NCBI GenBank assembly: GCA_021814695.1
Contig: JAKAHY010000002.1
Location: forward strand, 8,920 to 72,919
From: a bacterium
GTDB lineage: Bacteria; Patescibacteriota; Minisyncoccia; UBA6257; JAGOQP01
Direction of reading: 5' to 3'
Length of the DNA: 64,000 bases
Shown here one piece after another: positions 2,291-49,184 of the stretch. The notes beneath the pieces were generated by a model. That model worked only from the letters and a program-made list of their open reading frames with translations, had not been told where the DNA came from and made no database searches. The stretch's first letter is position 1. The number at the start of each line of letters is the position of its first letter. A program made the translations under genes and the position numbers.

Positions 2291-2530
2291 CTAAACTAAA
2301 TGCTTGTTTCTAAAAGCTATTCCCGAACCACTTTTCAGATATTTTTCAAAGTTGATCGCCTGTTCCTTGTTATGAAAAGTGCAGTGCCAAGCAATAATAA
2401 ATGGCGCTCTACTTGAGCTATATTTGGAACCATAACTATTATGTTCCAATAGTCTTTTCTTAATATCAATTGTGATGCCCGTATAGAAACTCCCATCTTT
2501 TAAACTGCGAAGAATATAGACAAAATACAT
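2291..2530 (-). CDS. GIY-YIG nuclease family protein (small, stand-alone)
   Basis: MYFVYILRSLKDGSFYTGITIDIKKRLLEHN matches the GIY-YIG motif arrangement; 79 aa. Confidence 0.8.
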   Translation of the reverse strand: MYFVYILRSLKDGSFYTGITIDIKKRLLEHNSYGSKYSSSRAPFIIAWHCTFHNKEQAINFEKYLKSGSGIAFRNKHLV

Positions 2531-2596
2531 ATTATCTATAATTATATGGCCCTCCTTCGCATAAAGCTACGGAGGACTCACTACTCGCACCATAAA

Positions 2597-2622
2597 ACTC
2601 CCCAGATGGGGAGTTTTATTGC
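2597..2622 (-). terminator. Rho-independent terminator of the tmRNA
   Basis: Minus strand AAAACTCCCCAtctGGGGAGTTTTAT. Confidence 0.55.
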
Positions 2623-2672
2623 AATGCTTCTTGTGCAAGGAGTGCTTGCACTACGAAGCCTTGGCGAAGTAG

Positions 2673-30227: not shown

Positions 30228-30299
30228 GCGGGTATCGTATAGCGGCTATTATACTTCCTTGCCAAGGAAGAGATACGGGTCCGACTCCCGTTACCCGCT
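30228..30299 (+). tRNA. tRNA-Gly (GCC)
   Basis: Acceptor GCGGGTA/TACCCGC; anticodon arm CTTCC-TTGCCAA-GGAAG; T-arm ACGGG-TCCGACT-CCCGT. Confidence 0.9.
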
Positions 30300-30302
30300 C
30301 AA

Positions 30303-30337
30303 AAACAAAAATTACCCAAACGGGTAATTTTTGTTTT
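30303..30337. terminator. Perfect 11-bp hairpin terminator after tRNA-Gly
   Basis: AAAAATTACCCaaaCGGGTAATTTTTgtttt. Confidence 0.6.
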
Positions 30338-30466
30338 GGGTGTTGACGGGGTAGGATGCGGGGTGGTCGAGGGGCTGCAAGCCCCTCGTGTTGGAAATTA
30401 TTCAAAACCGAGGGTTTTGAAGGAGCGAATATAATGAGCGACGTCCGATTTCCCGTTACCCGCTCA
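30336..30466 (+). repeat. tRNA-trailer structured element, copy E1, ending in a duplicate of the tRNA-Gly(GCC) 3' end
   Basis: GGGGTGGTCGAGGGGctgcaaGCCCCTCGTGTTGGAAATTA-TTCAAAACCgagGGTTTTGAAGGAG-CGAATATAATGAGCGACGTCCGATTTCCC followed by GTTACCCGCTCA (= tRNA 3' end). Confidence 0.6.
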
Positions 30467-30502
30467 AAAACAAAAAGCACCACAAGGGTGTTTTTTGTTT
30501 TC

Positions 30503-30650
30503 TGTCCGCCCGGAAGGGAGTCTCACGTCGCTCCGACATTGCGTCGGAGCTCCCAAGACACCCTCGGTTTCTTGACGCTCCTCCGGAGCTTTTTCCTACA
30601 CGGGAGATTAAGCATCTCCCGACCCCTCTCTATTCAATTCCTTGTTGACG
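30503..30650 (-). repeat. tRNA-trailer structured element, copy E2 (minus strand), fused to a duplicate of the tRNA-Lys 3' end
   Basis: Minus strand GGAATTGAATAGAGAG-GGGTCGGGAGATgcttaATCTCCCGTGTAGGAAAAAG-CTCCggaGGAG-CGTCAAGAAACCGAGGGTGTCTTGGGAG-CTCCGACgcaatGTCGGAG-CGACGTGAGACTCCC-TTCCGGGCGGACA. Confidence 0.6.
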
Positions 30651-30689
30651 AACAAAACAAAAAATATTCACAAAGGATATTTCTTATTT

Positions 30690-30826
30690 TGTCCGCCCGG
30701 AAGGGAATCTCACGTCGCTCCGACCTTGCGTCGGAGCTCCTTAAAACCATTCGGTTTTAATATTTCCTCCACGGAAAACCTTCGGTTTCCCGACCCCATC
30801 CGATTTGATTCCTTTACTGACGAATA
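30690..30826 (-). repeat. tRNA-trailer structured element, copy E3 (minus strand), fused to a second duplicate of the tRNA-Lys 3' end
   Basis: Minus strand GGAATCAAATCGGAT-GGGGTCGGGAAACCgaagGTTTTCCGTGGAGGAAATA-TTAAAACCgaatGGTTTTAA-GGAG-CTCCGACgcaagGTCGGAG-CGACGTGAGATTCCC-TTCCGGGCGGACA. Confidence 0.6.
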
Positions 30827-30865
30827 TAAAACAAAAAGCACCACAAGGGTGTTTTTTGTTTTCTG

Positions 30866-30938
30866 TCCGCCCGGAAGGGATCGAACCTTCGACCGTCTCC
30901 TTAAGAGGGAGCTGCTCTACCAGCTGAGCTACGGGCGG
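30866..30938 (-). tRNA. tRNA-Lys (CTT)
   Basis: Minus strand CCGCCCG-TA-GCTCAGCTGGTAGAGC-A-GCTCC-CTCTTAA-GGAGA-CGGTC-GAAGG-TTCGATC-CCTTC-CGGGCGG-A. Confidence 0.9.
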
Positions 30939-32149: not shown

Positions 32150-33643
32150 ATGGATACTAACCTGAAAATTCCCAAAGAAATTTTAGAAATAGTAGGAACG
32201 CTCGGAAAAGCGGGTTTTGAGGCATATCCGGTAGGAGGATGTGTTAGGGATTTACTTATTAAAAAAGAACCTAAAGATTGGGATGTTGCCACCAATGCCA
32301 GACCAGAGGAAATCCAAAAAATATTTCCGGATAGTGTTTATGAGAATAATTTTGGCACTGTTGGAATCAAAACCAGATCCGATGAATCATCCTTAAAAAT
32401 CGTTGAGGTTACTACATTCAGAATTGAAGGGGGGTATAGCGATAGCCGTCACCCGGATTTGGTTAAATTTGCGGACAATTTACAAGACGACCTTTCCAGG
32501 CGTGACTTTACAATAAATGCGCTTGCATTGGAAATTCAAAATGAAAATATCAGAAATAAAAATAGTAATCAAAAATTCAAAATTATTGATCCGTATGAAG
32601 GGGGGACGGATATAAAGAATAAAATCATTAAAGCCGTAGGAGACCCGAATAAAAGGTTTGGAGAGGATGCTTTAAGAATGCTTAGAGCTGTCAGACTTGC
32701 TTGTCAGCTTGAGTTTGATATAGAGAAAAAAACGGAAGAAGAGATAAGGGAAAATGCTCACCTACTCAAAAAAATATCTAAAGAAAGAATAAGGGATGAA
32801 TTTTCTAAAATCATAATGACCGATTATGCCGAGCGGGGAGTTCGAATGCTCCAAAATCTTGGATTGATGAAATTTATTATCCCCGAGTTAATTGAGGGCG
32901 TCGGCGTTGCACAAAATAAACACCATATTTATACGGTTTGGGAACATAACGTTTTGGCATTGGGATACTCTGTTGCCAAGAGATATTCGTTTGAAGTCAG
33001 ATTGGCATCTCTTTTGCACGATGTCGGCAAACCGAGAACAAAACAAGGAGAGGGGCCCGATTCCACTTTTTATCAGCATGAATATGTCGGGGCCAAGATG
33101 ACAAGAAAAATTTTGGAAGATCTTAAATTTCCAAAACACATTGTTGATTATGTAACTCATCTGGTTAAATCACATCTTTTTTATTACAATGTCGGCGAAG
33201 TAACCGAGGCCGGAGTCAGAAGATTTTTGGCCAGAGTTGGACCGGAAAATGTTGACGACCTTATAAAGGTCAGAGAGGCGGACAGAATCGGTTCGGGCGT
33301 CCCCAAAGCATTCCCTTATAAATTGAGACATCTCCTTTTTATGATAGACAAGGTTAGACGGGACCCGATTTCTCCAAAAATGCTTAAAATAAACGGCAAT
33401 GATTTGATGAAAATCCTATCAATCGATCCCGGACCAAAAATCGGCCACATTCTCAATGCTCTTTTGGAAGAAGTTATTGAAGACCCGGAAAAAAACTCAA
33501 AAAAATATCTGGAAAAAAGAGCCGGAGAGTTAAATCGGCTTTCTGTTAAAGAACTTGAAAATTTGAGAAAAAGAGCAGAGAATGCCAAAGAAGAATTTGA
33601 GACGGGTATTGAAAAGGAAATGAAGCGCAGACATCACGTTTAA
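32150..33643 (+). CDS. cca: CCA-adding tRNA nucleotidyltransferase with HD domain
   Basis: Pol-beta nucleotidyltransferase head GGCVRDLLIKKEPKDWDVAT; HD motif LLHDVGK. Confidence 0.9.
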   Translation: MDTNLKIPKEILEIVGTLGKAGFEAYPVGGCVRDLLIKKEPKDWDVATNARPEEIQKIFPDSVYENNFGTVGIKTRSDESSLKIVEVTTFRIEGGYSDSRHPDLVKFADNLQDDLSRRDFTINALALEIQNENIRNKNSNQKFKIIDPYEGGTDIKNKIIKAVGDPNKRFGEDALRMLRAVRLACQLEFDIEKKTEEEIRENAHLLKKISKERIRDEFSKIIMTDYAERGVRMLQNLGLMKFIIPELIEGVGVAQNKHHIYTVWEHNVLALGYSVAKRYSFEVRLASLLHDVGKPRTKQGEGPDSTFYQHEYVGAKMTRKILEDLKFPKHIVDYVTHLVKSHLFYYNVGEVTEAGVRRFLARVGPENVDDLIKVREADRIGSGVPKAFPYKLRHLLFMIDKVRRDPISPKMLKINGNDLMKILSIDPGPKIGHILNALLEEVIEDPEKNSKKYLEKRAGELNRLSVKELENLRKRAENAKEEFETGIEKEMKRRHHV

Positions 33644-35429: not shown

Positions 35430-35500
35430 CGGGCTGTAGTATACCGGTAGTACGTGCGCTTCGGGTGCGTAAAGACCGGGTTCGATTCCCGGCAGCCCGA
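35430..35500 (+). tRNA. tRNA-Pro (CGG)
   Basis: CGGGCTG-TA-GTAT-ACCGGTA-GTAC-G-TGCGC-TTCGGGT-GCGTA-AAGA-CCGGG-TTCGATT-CCCGG-CAGCCCG-A. Confidence 0.9.
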
Positions 35501-35544
35501 CTAAAATAGAAATCCCATTCGGGATTTTTATTTTTGCTTGGACT

Positions 35545-35680
35545 CCGGAAATTGAATCAGAAGGGGTCGGGGAACCTGTGGTTCCCCGTGTAGGAAAAAG
35601 TCCGCCCTGGGCGGACGTCAAGAAACCGAGGGTGTTTTGGGAGGAGTGAAACGACGACGTGAGATTCCCGGCAGCCCGAC
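35545..35680 (+). repeat. tRNA-trailer structured element, copy E4, fused to a duplicate of the tRNA-Pro 3' end (GATTCCCGGCAGCCCGAC)
   Basis: GGAAATTGAATCAGAAG-GGGTCGGGGAACCtgtGGTTCCCCGTGTAGGAAAAAG-TCCGCCCtggGGCGGA-CGTCAAGAAACCGAGGGTGTTTTGGGAGGAGTGAAACGACGACGTGAGATTCCC-GGCAGCCCGAC. It is followed by a second copy of the tRNA flank and the first 16 nt of a further element (GGAATTGAATCGGAAG). Confidence 0.6.
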
Positions 35681-35772
35681 GAAAATAAAATTCCCCTTTA
35701 GGGGAGTTTTATTTATGTTTGGGTTTCAGGGGAATTGAATCGGAAGAAAAATGTTCTTAAATTTGATATACT

Positions 35773-37359: not shown

Positions 37360-37406
37360 TATAGTGACATTGCATGAGTGTGGGTTCGGTTCTCGCTGGA
37401 TCTACC
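37360..37406 (+). other. tRNA-like 3' fragment (T-arm-like plus ..CTACCA) immediately downstream of tRNA-Ala(CGC)
   Basis: ATAGTGACATTGCATGAGTGTGGGTTCGGTTCTCGCTGGATCTACCA, which is not the 3' end of the adjacent tRNA. Confidence 0.3.
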
Positions 37407-37491
37407 AAAAACAAATCCCCCCTTAGTTATCTAGTTGACTTTCGGATAACTTTTGATTACTATATCAATATAAATTGATATAGTTTATCAT

Positions 37492-47832: not shown

Positions 47833-47960
47833 ATTTGAAAATATCCCGACAAGTGAGGGGATTTTGTATAGTCCTTCTTCGCATAAAGCTTCGAAGGACA
47901 CTTTTCGTCTGGCTTGCACTTCGTAGCTCGCCAGGGCGAAGAAGTGAGCGGGTAAGGGGA
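47833..47960. repeat. Direct repeat copy a (about 128 bp): tRNA-Gly(TCC) downstream flank plus the 16-nt tRNA 3' end
   Basis: Near-identical to 48061..48188 (offset 228 bp); ends in ..GTGAGCGGGTAAGGGGA, the reverse complement of the tRNA 3' end. Confidence 0.8.
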
Positions 47961-48061
47961 AGTCTTACGCTCACCCCCGACCCCCGCTTAAGAAACCTTC
48001 GGGTTTCTTACGTCCCTATTTTCCAACACGGGGGTTCGCATTCGACTCCCAAACTCACCCA
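47961..48061 (-). repeat. Divergent copy (E5) of the tRNA-trailer element between the two direct repeats
   Basis: Minus strand GGGAGTCGAATGCGAACCCCCGTGTTGGAAAATAGG-GACGTAAGAAACCcgaagGGTTTCTTAAG-CGGGGGTCGGGGGTGAGCGTAAGACTTCCCC followed by TTACCCGCTCA. Confidence 0.45.
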
Positions 48062-48188
48062 CAAAAAAATATCCCGACAAGTGAGGGGATTTTGTATAGT
48101 CCTTCTTCGCATAAAGCTTCGAAGGACACTTTTCGTCTGGCTTGCACTTCGTAGCTCGCCAGGGCGAAGAAGTGAGCGGGTAAGGGGA
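48061..48188. repeat. Direct repeat copy b (overlaps the 3' end of the intact tRNA-Gly(TCC))
   Basis: See copy a. Confidence 0.8.
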
Positions 48189-48245
48189 GTCGGACCCCTC
48201 TCATCAGCTTGGAAAGCTGAGGTAATACCGATATACGATACCCGC
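48175..48245 (-). tRNA. tRNA-Gly (TCC)
   Basis: Minus strand GCGGGTA-TC-GTAT..-TCAGC-TTTCCAA-GCTGA-TGAG-AGGGG-TCCGACT-CCCCT-TACCCGC-T. Confidence 0.85.
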
Positions 48246-48941: not shown

Positions 48942-49014
48942 GGGCCGTTAGCTTAGTTGGTAGAGCGCCTCGTTTGCAACGAGGAGGTCACCGGTTCGAA
49001 TCCGGTACGGTCCA
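48942..49014 (+). tRNA. tRNA-Ala (TGC)
   Basis: GGGCCGT (G3·U70)-TA-GCTT-AGTTGGTA-GAGC-G-CCTCG-TTTGCAA-CGAGG-AGGTC-ACCGG-TTCGAAT-CCGGT-ACGGTCC-A. Confidence 0.9.
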
Positions 49015-49020
49015 CATAAC

Positions 49021-49047
49021 AAAAAAATTGCCTAGCGCAATTTTTTT
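49021..49047. terminator. Hairpin terminator after tRNA-Ala
   Basis: AAAAAAATTGCctagcGCAATTTTTTT. Confidence 0.55.
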
Positions 49048-49054
49048 GTTATGA

Positions 49055-49184
49055 TGAATCAGGGTCGGTTTGAATATTTAGGGGTCGGGGTATTTGTAAA
49101 TACCCCGAGTAAGAAAATTTGAGAAACCGTGGGTTTCTCACGAACGAATGAAATGAGTGAGGTGAGATTCCGGTACGGTCCACA
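49055..49184 (+). repeat. tRNA-trailer structured element, copy E6, fused to a duplicate of the tRNA-Ala(TGC) 3' end
   Basis: GGTTTGAATATTTAG-GGGTCGGGGTATTTgtaAATACCCCGAGTAAGAAAAT-TTGAGAAACCgtgGGTTTCTCA-CGAACGAATGAAATGAGTGAG-GTGAGATTCC-GGTACGGTCCACA. Confidence 0.6.

Follow-up and report, generated by a model that had tools for sequence, protein, structure and literature searches.

A family of small hairpin-rich elements associated with duplicated tRNA 3′ ends in Patescibacteria

Elements at tRNA loci in the window

The window, that is, the whole 64-kb stretch of DNA analysed here, contains nine tRNA and tmRNA genes, five of which were occupied by a family of elements of about 120 nt. With a covariance model based on 37 members of the family, six matches were obtained in the window (37.7-73.3 bits, E = 7e-18 to 2.5e-8), and the next best match had E = 0.24. 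All six were downstream of five tRNA genes and none was elsewhere in the 64 kb. An initial annotation of this DNA had described six copies at five tRNA loci and suggested a search of this kind; the model found exactly these six copies, each at its claimed position. A two-block pattern matched four of the six, with no match expected by chance (100 shuffles).

On the 3′ side of each copy we found an exact duplicate of the 3′ end of the adjacent tRNA, as the same annotation had stated; it covered the final 15-18 nt. The order of a unit could be read at many loci: the gene end (T1), a segment R, an antisense copy of the target (T′), the multi-hairpin core (E), a sense copy of the target (T2) and the native flank. 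As R we found a terminator or a short loop, and in occasional units cargo genes. The features in the window are as follows.

30228..30300, + strand, tRNA-Gly(GCC); its final ~16 nt (30286-30301, TCCCGTTACCCGCTCA) are the target copy T1
30302..30337, + strand, R, a terminator-like hairpin between tRNA-Gly(GCC) and the element
30338..30450, + strand, element behind tRNA-Gly(GCC), with decayed antisense arm, core and pseudo-T-loop GTCCGATT
30354-30428, + strand, model match in the core of this element, 73.3 bits
30451..30466, + strand, T2, second exact 3′ end of tRNA-Gly(GCC)
30467..30502, no strand, bidirectional terminator common to the convergent Gly(GCC) and Lys units, 100% identical to 30828-30863
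30503..30519, - strand, T2 of the distal tRNA-Lys unit, a copy of the tRNA-Lys 3′ end
30520..30653, - strand, distal tRNA-Lys element (E2), with hairpin 2; model match 30547-30635, 70.9 bits
30654..30689, - strand, R of the middle unit, a terminator ~70% like the flanking terminators, with compensatory stem changes
30690..30706, - strand, T2 of the proximal tRNA-Lys unit
30707..30827, - strand, proximal tRNA-Lys element (E1), without hairpin 2; model match 30734-30806, 53.6 bits
30865..30938, - strand, tRNA-Lys(CTT); T1 at 30864-30880
35430..35501, + strand, tRNA-Pro(CGG); T1 at 35484-35501 (GATTCCCGGCAGCCCGAC)
35536..35662, + strand, element behind tRNA-Pro, antisense arm and core; model match 35554-35646, 70.6 bits
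35663..35680, + strand, T2 of the tRNA-Pro unit, followed by a second terminator at 35681-35729
35730..35748, + strand, truncated 5′ end of a further element (GGGGAATTGAATCGGAAG) at the tRNA-Pro locus
47838..47960, - strand, distal 123-nt direct repeat of tRNA-Gly(TCC): 15 nt of the tRNA 3′ end and 108 nt of flank
47961..48065, - strand, element behind tRNA-Gly(TCC), with permuted core; model match 47982-48065, 37.7 bits
48066..48188, - strand, proximal 123-nt direct repeat, overlapping the 3′ end of tRNA-Gly(TCC)
48174..48245, - strand, tRNA-Gly(TCC)
48942..49015, + strand, tRNA-Ala(TGC); T1 at 49001-49016
49017-49052, terminator 5′ of the tRNA-Ala(TGC) element
49053..49168, + strand, element behind tRNA-Ala(TGC); model match 49072-49147, 69.3 bits
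49169..49184, + strand, T2 of the tRNA-Ala unit (TCCGGTACGGTCCACA)

The tRNA-Lys array of two units faces the Gly(GCC) unit, as previously described, and the convergent units have the terminator at 30467..30502 in common. The two 123-nt repeats at tRNA-Gly(TCC) are 100% identical. The circular permutation of the core at this locus was not part of the earlier description.

Architecture of the units

The conserved 5′ block GGAATTGAATC and the bases preceding it proved to be a decayed antisense copy of the tRNA T-loop/3′ end, which had been missed earlier. Across the family, T′ was an antisense copy of ~8-21 nt of the intact target, and several copies matched it without error over 15-21 nt. The window copies had a decayed antisense arm and an exact T2. 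The element also carried a pseudo-target half-site, with GTGA where the T-loop has GTTC, while T′ retained GAAC. T2 was identical to the target from the crossover point onward, and the identity started sharply. In some copies a GCGAAGC mini-hairpin was exactly at the junction. The junction of a subfamily at an rpsI-like gene followed the same logic as that of the tRNA copies. In tRNA and tmRNA genes, insertion is at one set position within the T-arm, and the interrupted gene end is rebuilt. The initial annotation had regarded this as the classic core site of integrases. The T-arm repeat agrees with that view, but every copy also carries its target in inverted form, by which the element is closed into a helix.

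Of the 91 type-A copies, 53 had exact direct repeats of 11 nt or more. The repeats measured 11-96 nt in the scored loci and 123 nt in the window, with one end fixed and the other variable, and they often ended just past a terminator. The tRNA part of the repeat had a mode of 15 nt (16/36) and was 13-18 nt long in 32 of 36 cases. A terminator usually stood between the tRNA and E. In several copies a 12-bp minihelix resulted, as T′ started at or near the position complementary to the final acceptor base; the closing helices at protein genes had no likeness to tRNA. The element measured 110-130 nt and whole units 150-230 nt, and the body (R) can be as short as 4-40 nt.

Two other readings of the arms were rejected. 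Snap-back synthesis at the terminator was considered as the source of T′, but in L116 and L005 T′ does not run on unbroken from the terminator palindrome. A tmRNA-like structure or a tRNA on the opposite strand was dismissed, as the element has neither a D arm nor an anticodon arm.

Distribution and targets

More than 120 loci, almost all from Patescibacteria, came out of a single pattern scan. Applied to 121 loci, the covariance model made 128 matches at E <= 0.01. The family is phylum-wide and not peculiar to the source genome, and E is best read as a small, protein-less element endemic to Patescibacteria (candidate phyla radiation, CPR). Pattern matches in the non-CPR hosts Ensifer and Fluviicola, an Acidobacteriaceae bin, a Paracoccaceae bin and two proteobacterial bins (L068, L072) were discarded, having no model match; a Sphingobacterium locus reached only 24.6 bits. 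A bin labelled 'Gammaproteobacteria' (L077) had a good copy and may be mis-binned. A phage origin was also rejected, as the single pattern match in 2.9 million viral contigs was unconfirmed by the model and was a chance match.

About half of the copies were downstream of tRNA or tmRNA genes, 40 on the same strand as the gene and one on the opposite strand; this bias would also fit co-transcription. The targets comprised 15 tRNA isotypes, tmRNA and several conserved protein genes; among the latter, rpsG and an rpsI-like gene were occupied at their 3′ ends, dnaX and the gene of a translational GTPase at their 5′ ends. The proposed target, the T-loop/3′ end of tRNA genes, was upheld for tRNA and tmRNA genes but not as the only target. 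Some copies lay inside coding regions, and permuted copies adjoined tRNA 5′ ends at a distance of 3-5 nt. At the tRNA-Pro site of a distant relative (L113), a related copy occupied the same position. Between the window and this relative the tRNA-Pro element was ~80-85% conserved, compared with ~67% for coding DNA, which hints at selection on the inserted copy.

Rfam 15, used with gathering and with permissive thresholds, gave only tRNA and tmRNA matches in the window, nothing for E at E <= 10 and nothing for type A and type B copies at eight loci at E <= 0.1; no Rfam ribozyme family matched the element in the window or at the eight loci. Full-text literature searches found no description of the element and yielded only group I introns, which lie in the anticodon loops of CPR tRNAs (PMC13011429). 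As far as could be found, the element is undescribed so far.

Evidence of mobility

Strains L123 and L125 lacked 228 bp at tRNA-Gly(TCC), corresponding to the element and one 123-nt repeat. The strains compared at this locus were 100% identical to the window over 3.6-6.6 kb, so gain or loss of the element goes on in living populations. Pure loss, by recombination between the repeats, could account for the 228-bp difference. No length variation was seen at the Lys/Gly(GCC) or Pro loci, each covered by three spanning contigs, the remaining contigs ending there.

A near-identical core was present at tRNA-Cys, tRNA-Thr, tmRNA and tRNA-Gln, with target-specific arms at each, and two copies within one genome had an identical core and different arms. 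Such combinations need either re-programming of the arms or gene conversion of the core. Tandem arrays occurred, as did cargo open reading frames between T1 and T′-E-T2. Most units had no cargo; in the arrays L096 and L104 there was sometimes one small reading frame per unit, and those of L096 had no Pfam domain. Repeats of 64-123 nt that reach into genome-specific flank are better explained by excision and re-integration within a population, or by target-site duplication, than by entry from elsewhere. The initial annotation had offered a structured RNA or a mobile element. The 15-nt peak, the polymorphism, the same core at four targets and the arrays speak for the latter. A free-standing structured RNA gained no positive support, given the lack of a G·U excess, the DNA-type mini-hairpins and the copies inside coding regions.

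Folding of the element strand

The hairpins had been said to vary in sequence yet stay paired, and this was borne out. Hairpin 1 and the AAACC/GGTTT hairpin covary: 97.8% of cells were paired and 72 cells were changed on both sides, and none of 500 shuffles was as high. Two details had to be corrected. The block CGTCAAGAAACCGAGGGTGTyTTGGGAG, taken as single-stranded, is itself a conserved hairpin, and TTAAAACCgaatGGTTTTAA, given as 'hairpin 2' of one of the tRNA-Lys copies, is this conserved hairpin and not hairpin 2. A long-range GGGGTC/GAYTCC pair predicted by RNAalifold was not general: the protein-gene subfamily has no GAYTCC, and the T′:T2 helix closes the element.

We found no excess of G·U pairs. 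G·T and A·C mismatches numbered 13 vs 12 and 4 vs 4 in one comparison and 12 vs 7 in another, and neither hairpin 1, the AAACC/GGTTT hairpin nor the T′:T helix had a bias. GCGAAGC occurred 41 times on the element strand and once as its complement, and CCGAAGG 39 times compared with twice, which makes these motifs ~40 times commoner on the element strand. Mini-hairpins with C-GAA-G triloops also outnumbered GNRA tetraloops (GCGAAGC 41, GCGAAAGC 1). In DNA, GCGAAGC-type mini-hairpins are extraordinarily stable and are present at the single-strand initiation sites of phage G4 and ssiA, whereas their RNA versions are far less stable (PMC13037366).

Search for an associated enzyme

The element has no gene for a recombinase, transposase or reverse transcriptase linked to it in cis. 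Reading frames lying no more than 1.5 kb from an element, 150 in all, matched 152 Pfam families, none of them in more than three members, and the 25 commonest included no recombinase, transposase, reverse transcriptase or intI-like integrase. We also found no RAYT and no related full-length insertion sequence there. The statement that the window has no integrase held for the ten ORFs scanned beside the five tRNA loci and the tmRNA, where no tyrosine recombinase was detected. The one serine recombinase seen, a large one at L071, was rejected as the enzyme of the element. It is part of another island, which has a tRNA remnant of its own and uses the tRNA-Glu end that the element also uses.

Possible mechanisms

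We put it at somewhat better than an even chance that E is a non-autonomous, site-specific mobile DNA element whose T′:T2 helix is a folded single-stranded copy of the target. In the proposed route, the element strand would fold as single-stranded DNA, and T′ would pair with the pseudo-site and T2 into a target-duplex mimic of ~20 bp, whose crossover would hold either a mismatch of 2 nt or a bulged mini-hairpin. A recombinase acting in trans, either from the host or encoded elsewhere, would swap one strand with the chromosomal target, and replication would finish the insertion. This route alone would give the order T1-R-T′-E-T2. The target would be regenerated on insertion, so that arrays can grow. 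The mini-hairpin-rich core may keep off single-strand binding protein or prime synthesis of the complementary strand. A precedent is CTXphi, in which two inverted dif-like sites fold in the single strand, host XerC swaps one strand pair and replication completes the process (PMC4246890). Against the mobile-element reading stands the fact that a recombinase candidate is missing so far. The route also gives no account of the origin of a single-stranded copy of ~200 nt or of the rewriting of the arms.

As the target sequences are diverse, a target-reading protein cannot explain them all, and the specificity would lie in the arms of the element. A bolder version, to which we give perhaps one chance in four, is a protein-less programmable module, in which the arms (~20 nt, antisense and sense, of whatever site is chosen) would form the recognition duplex and the core would recruit a ubiquitous CPR enzyme that swaps strands with the matching site in the chromosome.

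Other explanations fared less well. It seems unlikely that this is a classic integrative element of double-stranded DNA that has no integrase of its own and is comparable to a cis-mobilisable element, with E as a minimal attP arm region and a tyrosine integrase encoded elsewhere that recombines a core site in the tRNA T-arm. T-loop-class integrases have their att core in the T-loop and a repeat extending to the tRNA 3′ end, which is the extent of the repeat seen here. The left half-site borne by the element, the sharp start of identity, the arrays and cargo, and the L071 island at the same tRNA-Glu end would also suit this explanation. However, double-stranded arm sites need neither compensatory hairpin changes nor strand-specific mini-hairpins, and we know of no double-stranded attP or att site with a full inverted copy of its target. 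In addition, unrelated protein-gene sequences are among the targets, and no integrase was enriched in the 150 neighbouring reading frames. We are equally doubtful about a structured non-coding RNA with a host function that is co-transcribed with tRNA or mRNA and was secondarily spread, its T′:T2 helix mimicking the acceptor/T-stem minihelix for RNase P, RNase Z or the CCA-adding enzyme. Such an RNA would account for the 40:1 co-orientation with tRNA genes, the 12-bp minihelix, the permuted copies close to tRNA 5′ ends and a core conserved across the superphylum and, between the window and L113, above coding DNA. Circular permutation, moreover, is common in small ribozymes. Yet Rfam had no match even at E = 10, a G·U excess was absent, and C-GAA-G triloops dominated over GNRA tetraloops. 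A terminator usually separates the tRNA from E, some copies lie within coding regions, and the closing helices at protein genes are unlike tRNA. The decay of the antisense arm in the window beside an exact T2, and the dispensability of the element among identical strains, also tell against a host function.

A SINE-like retro-element is very improbable. Its read-through transcript, ending in T2 and flank, would prime on a nicked target with a reverse transcriptase in trans and leave duplications of variable length. Repeats of 11-123 nt that often end just past a terminator, and the strand bias with transcription, are what it would produce, but no reverse transcriptase was linked, the mini-hairpins are of the DNA type and the inverted arm is left unaccounted for. 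Group II introns are, furthermore, reported to be absent from Patescibacteria (PMC13011429). Ordinary conserved intergenic DNA or chance similarity, two of the outcomes that the initial annotation had named as refuting it, can be practically dismissed. The model reached E = 7e-18 compared with 0.24 for the next best match, no pattern match was expected by chance, the element was present or absent among identical strains, and copies occurred in coding regions; no point in favour was found.

Patescibacteria have tiny genomes and were thought to be poor in mobile elements beyond group I introns. The preferred reading, a folded single-stranded DNA element, would add to these one that enters essential genes at their most conserved positions and leaves the genes intact, because the element brings the terminal segment of the gene. 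If the specificity resides in the arms, this would be a natural case of integration specified by nucleic acid and carried out by trans-acting, probably host, enzymes, with a bearing on DNA exchange in reduced genomes and on genome engineering. Should the programmable module be real, target choice would lie in nucleic acid, as with bridge RNAs, but on folded single-stranded DNA. It would represent a new class of site-specific mobile element, possibly re-targetable, without its own recombinase. In practice, the elements break short-read assemblies at tRNA genes, and their partial tRNA copies can mislead annotation.

Comparison with known systems

Like MITEs and REP/REPIN sequences, E is small, non-coding, multi-copy, hairpin-forming, mostly intergenic and without an enzyme in cis; unlike both, it inserts site-specifically at conserved gene positions. 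It differs further from MITEs in having no terminal inverted repeats of its own, as its inverted arms are the local target and differ at each site. Its target-site duplication is neither short nor fixed (11 to 123 nt), and the 25 Pfam families that were commonest in the 150 neighbouring reading frames included no transposase that would point to a related autonomous element.

With tRNA-targeting islands and tycheposon-like arrays, E has in common integration at the T-loop/3′ end, a restored gene, a partial tRNA repeat and arrays. The direct repeats that mark integrase-mediated tRNA islands were found here too (15-nt mode; 32/36 within 13-18 nt). However, E is only 110-130 nt long, has no integrase, carries an inverted target copy and covarying hairpins, and also uses the ends of protein genes.

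Integron attC sites are likewise folded, single-stranded imperfect palindromes with extrahelical features and a variable but structure-conserving centre, and integron cassettes form tandem arrays at one site through a recombinase in trans, as is proposed for E. Strand-specific folding of a single strand, with conserved structure and variable sequence, is characteristic of attC and was seen here in the covariation and the mini-hairpins. E differs in that it has no RYYYAAC/GTTRRRY core sites and no attI platform, its arrays begin at tRNA genes, its arms are target-gene copies that differ at each site and most of its units are cargo-free.

In CTXphi and related Xer-dependent elements, as in E, inverted target-like sites ~100 nt apart pair in one strand with a mismatched crossover, and the element encodes no recombinase (PMC4246890). 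By our own derivation, the integrated order of CTXphi (target, element body, inverted site, spacer, hybrid site) would match that of E. In contrast, E targets the T-arms of tRNA and tmRNA genes or protein-gene ends instead of dif, its spacer is a conserved multi-hairpin core, its body can be as short as 4-40 nt and it has no phage genes. For E, host XerC/XerD would be hypothetical catalysts.

Finally, E resembles elements with IS110 bridge RNAs, IS200/IS605 guides or the guide pairings of group I and II introns in carrying a sequence complementary to its own insertion site. Unlike these, it has no DEDD or HUH transposase, intron core or Rfam match, and its guide-like arm, of up to 21 nt, is paired in cis with a second copy of the target.

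Element copies in the window

The window contains eight tRNA genes and one tmRNA gene. Related segments of 105-134 nt lie behind tRNA-Gly(GCC), tRNA-Lys(CTT) (two in tandem), tRNA-Pro(CGG), tRNA-Gly(TCC) and tRNA-Ala(TGC). All six are on the same strand as their tRNA, and the final 15-18 nt of the respective tRNA are repeated exactly after each of them (direct repeats D2, D6, D7 and D9). The six copies could be aligned with one another, and a two-block pattern matched four of them (none expected by chance). A covariance model based on 37 members of the family matched exactly these six in the window, with E values from 7e-18 to 2.5e-8 and a runner-up at 0.24. The initial annotation had claimed six copies at five tRNA loci, each followed by an exact duplication of the tRNA 3′ end, and both claims were thus confirmed. 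The block around GAAACCGAGGGT, described there as a conserved single strand, proved to be a hairpin. The 5′ block GGAATTGAATC is indeed conserved, with the amendment that, together with the preceding bases, it represents the tRNA T-loop and 3′ end in antisense, in decayed form. At tRNA-Gly(TCC), the copy has a circularly permuted core. An Rfam search with the window element gave no family match, even at E = 10.

At the tRNA-Pro locus, a further element is represented by a truncated 5′ end (GGGGAATTGAATCGGAAG; 35730-35748, plus strand), which follows the second terminator just ahead of an AI-2E transporter gene and is probably what is left of a longer array.

Distribution and core structure

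Scanning one genome per prokaryotic species with an exact pattern yielded at least 120 loci. Among the matches listed, nearly all were from Patescibacteria, the carriers including Parcubacteria/Paceibacterota, Saccharibacteria, Berkelbacteria, Magasanikbacteria and many other groups. When 121 loci were searched with the covariance model, 128 matches were confirmed (E <= 0.01). The model rejected the lone viral pattern match and the small number from Proteobacteria, Bacteroidota and Acidobacteria.

The conserved core (E) has two topologies. Type A comprises, in order, GGGGTC, hairpin 1, CGTGKWGGAAA, an optional hairpin 2, an AAACC/GGTTT hairpin, GGAG and a variable hairpin 3. In type B, this core is opened within hairpin 1 and joined where the type A ends lie. 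Covariation was strong in hairpin 1 and the AAACC/GGTTT hairpin (97.8% paired, 72 cells altered on both sides); none of 500 shuffles scored as high, and slid controls were all far lower. On the opposite strand, hairpin 2 followed by TTTTTCC scores as an intrinsic terminator at two window positions:

35600-35616, minus strand: hairpin 2 terminator
30577-30589, plus strand: hairpin 2 terminator

Copies with hairpin 2 could block antisense transcription into the tRNA.

Targets and junctions

The many loci read share one scheme: the gene end bearing a first sense target copy (T1); a loop, terminator or occasional cargo (R); an antisense target copy (T′); E; a second sense copy (T2); and the native flank. 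T′, perfect across 15-21 nt in several copies, pairs with T2, and E is therefore the 'loop' of a long helix. Exact direct repeats of at least 11 nt were present in 53 of 91 type-A copies. The upstream repeat starts inside a tRNA or tmRNA gene in 36 copies, and its tRNA part measures 15 nt in 16 of these and 13-18 nt in 32. At the junction, the element-borne half-site after E (pseudo-site) reads GTGA where the tRNA T-loop has GTTC, whereas T′ retains the true complement GAAC. Thus, the helix has a two-base mismatch beside the start of tRNA identity. Some copies have a bulged GCGAAGC mini-hairpin precisely at this junction.

Of 87 type-A copies at the scanned loci, 40 have a co-oriented tRNA or tmRNA gene no more than 250 nt upstream, and one lies on the opposite strand to such a gene. 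The tRNA-associated type-A copies span 15 isotypes plus tmRNA, and the remainder include fixed positions in protein genes.

Protein-gene targets of type-A copies
rpsG: last codons, just before fusA (two genomes)
rpsI-like gene: 3′ end (two genomes)
L28-like gene: 3′ end
dnaX: first codons, gene on the opposite strand (two genomes)
Translational GTPase gene: G1 region

The copy continuous with the gene body is always on the 5′ side of E. As the duplication reaches the gene end, the target gene stays intact. Type B copies are mostly a few bases from tRNA genes.

In a Yonathbacteria locus (L002, minus strand), a different cargo of ~110 nt (AGCCGGAAGCGGGCACCCGC...) occupies the stretch from tRNA-Gly(TCC) (1078-1149) to an E copy (743-833). 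It is flanked by antisense and sense copies of the tRNA end, ahead of the nested E copy. With a different cargo in the same slot, more than one element family has this architecture.

Mobility and strain variation

The decisive mobility result came from tRNA-Gly(TCC). Here, other samples supplied contigs 100% identical to the window across 3.6-6.6 kb, and exactly 228 bp, comprising the 105-nt element and one copy of a 123-nt repeat, were missing from contigs of NCBI GCA_027423305.1 and ENA ERZ27237587. The 228 bp were present in two other identical contigs. This difference arose either by a gain in the very recent past or by exact loss through repeat recombination. Spanning contigs (at least three at each locus) revealed no length difference at the Lys/Gly(GCC), Pro and Ala loci.

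One of the strains lacking the 228 bp (L125), otherwise identical, has a second small indel here, an extra ~70 nt inserted ~110 nt upstream of the tRNA-Gly(TCC) gene. Short-read contigs of the window's own strain (L129-L131, L135-L138) end in or just beside tRNA-Lys and tRNA-Pro; the assemblies are broken by the repeated tRNA ends and elements.

Across three genomes, a nearly identical core of ~125 nt stands behind tRNA-Cys, tRNA-Thr, a tmRNA gene and tRNA-Gln, with its own arms at each of the four sites. In a distant relative (L113, ~67% gene DNA identity), the same tRNA-Pro is followed by a related element in which hairpin 1 has changed in a compensatory way and T2 tracks a change in the tRNA acceptor. 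Tandem arrays occur at the window tRNA-Lys and at L002, L042 and L104. At L096 and L104, the space between the tRNA and T′-E-T2 holds small, cassette-like reading frames that have no Pfam domain.

Neighboring genes and other repeats

We found no element-encoded enzyme in cis. The window neighbors are housekeeping genes (ZnuA, CCA-adding enzyme, glutamate racemase, SmpB and others). Within 1.5 kb of copies, 150 reading frames matched 152 Pfam families, each in at most three members, and the 25 commonest included no recombinase, transposase or reverse transcriptase. A serine-recombinase island at L071 was rejected as the enzyme source; its own tRNA remnant marks an independent event. The CCA-adding enzyme gene (32150-33643, plus strand) is located between tRNA loci, and none of the element-bearing tRNA genes in the window encodes CCA.

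A second repeat family of ~110 nt lies directly 3′ of the tmRNA gene and of tRNA-Gly(TCC):

2542-2669, minus strand: second-family copy
48066-48173, minus strand: second-family copy
2291-2530, minus strand: ORF

These copies share ACTnCTTCGCC and a GTCCTyCGwAGCTTTATGCGAAGrAGGrC hairpin, and the tmRNA-side block precedes the ORF of a 79-aa GIY-YIG nuclease (Pfam E = 5e-14). Possibly, this family is a small GIY-YIG element for which tRNA/tmRNA 3′ flanks are likewise targets. tRNA-Ala(CGC) carries no element; the foreign fragment after it, similar to a tRNA 3′ end (GGGTTCGGTTCTCGCTGGATCTACCA; ~37385-37410, plus strand), looks like a scar left by some other integration.

Folding and proposed mechanism

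Among helix mismatches, A·C was about as frequent as G·T (13 versus 12, 4 versus 4 and 12 versus 7); therefore, the inserted copies show no RNA-type tolerance. In the variable arms, GCGAAGC occurred 41 times on the element strand versus once on the complement, and CCGAAGG 39 times versus twice. GCGGAGC and GCGCAGC were also abundant, and the tetraloop form GCGAAAGC occurred once. Such motifs are 'mini-hairpin DNA', whose extraordinary stability in DNA is much reduced in RNA. Natural examples at single-strand initiation sites are the phage G4 complementary-strand origin, ssiA of a broad-host-range plasmid and the single-stranded promoters of phage N4 (PMC13037366). The mismatch balance and the mini-hairpin bias point to one specific strand folding as DNA.

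We propose that a single strand carrying T (right half)-R-T′-E-pseudo-left-half would fold, T′ pairing with the pseudo-site and T, and so present the target in duplex form, distorted around the crossover. A single strand exchange there with the chromosomal site, followed by replication, would give T1-R-T′-E-pseudo-site-T2, regenerating the target and leaving the gene whole. Integron attC sites follow the same folded-single-strand principle. CTXphi integrates likewise, with two inverted dif-like sites folded in the (+) strand, one strand pair exchanged by host XerC and the process completed by replication (PMC4246890). The model accounts for the part order, the element-borne half-site, the sharp junction, the fixed orientation to the target, the arrays, the occasional cargo and the absence of a cis enzyme. 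It does not explain the origin of the short strand, the acting enzyme, the re-writing of the arms or, unless the arms themselves specify the site, how one enzyme serves unrelated targets. Long repeats with genome-specific flank fall outside it and fit excision and re-integration within the population, or staggered-cut duplication.

With moderate confidence, we consider the element to be a non-autonomous site-specific mobile element acting via a folded single strand; that it is a mobile element is much firmer. A double-stranded mini-element dependent on an integrase seems improbable, as it gives no account of the covariation, the strand-specific mini-hairpins or the inverted arm. A host structured RNA, processed like a tRNA minihelix, would suit the co-orientation with tRNA genes, the minihelix-like arms and the strong conservation. 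However, a terminator stands in front of the element, arms occur at protein genes, the hairpins are of DNA type with no G·U excess, and the element is dispensable, so we regard this explanation as unlikely. It is very unlikely that the element is a retro-element, which would not produce the inverted arm; nor was a reverse transcriptase seen. The probability of chance similarity or ordinary intergenic DNA is negligible given the pattern shuffles, the model E values and the presence/absence polymorphism.

Comparison with known systems

Within the limits of the literature searched, we found no Rfam family and no paper describing the element. That the E family represents a genuinely new, nucleic-acid-programmed class is possible but doubtful. 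In mechanism it comes closest to CTXphi-type elements and integron attC cassettes, and in target choice to tRNA-targeting islands. It lacks the dif target that defines the first, the core sites and IntI that define the second, and the internal integrase that defines the third. The E family is placed within the site-specific integrative elements, as a new form of this known type.
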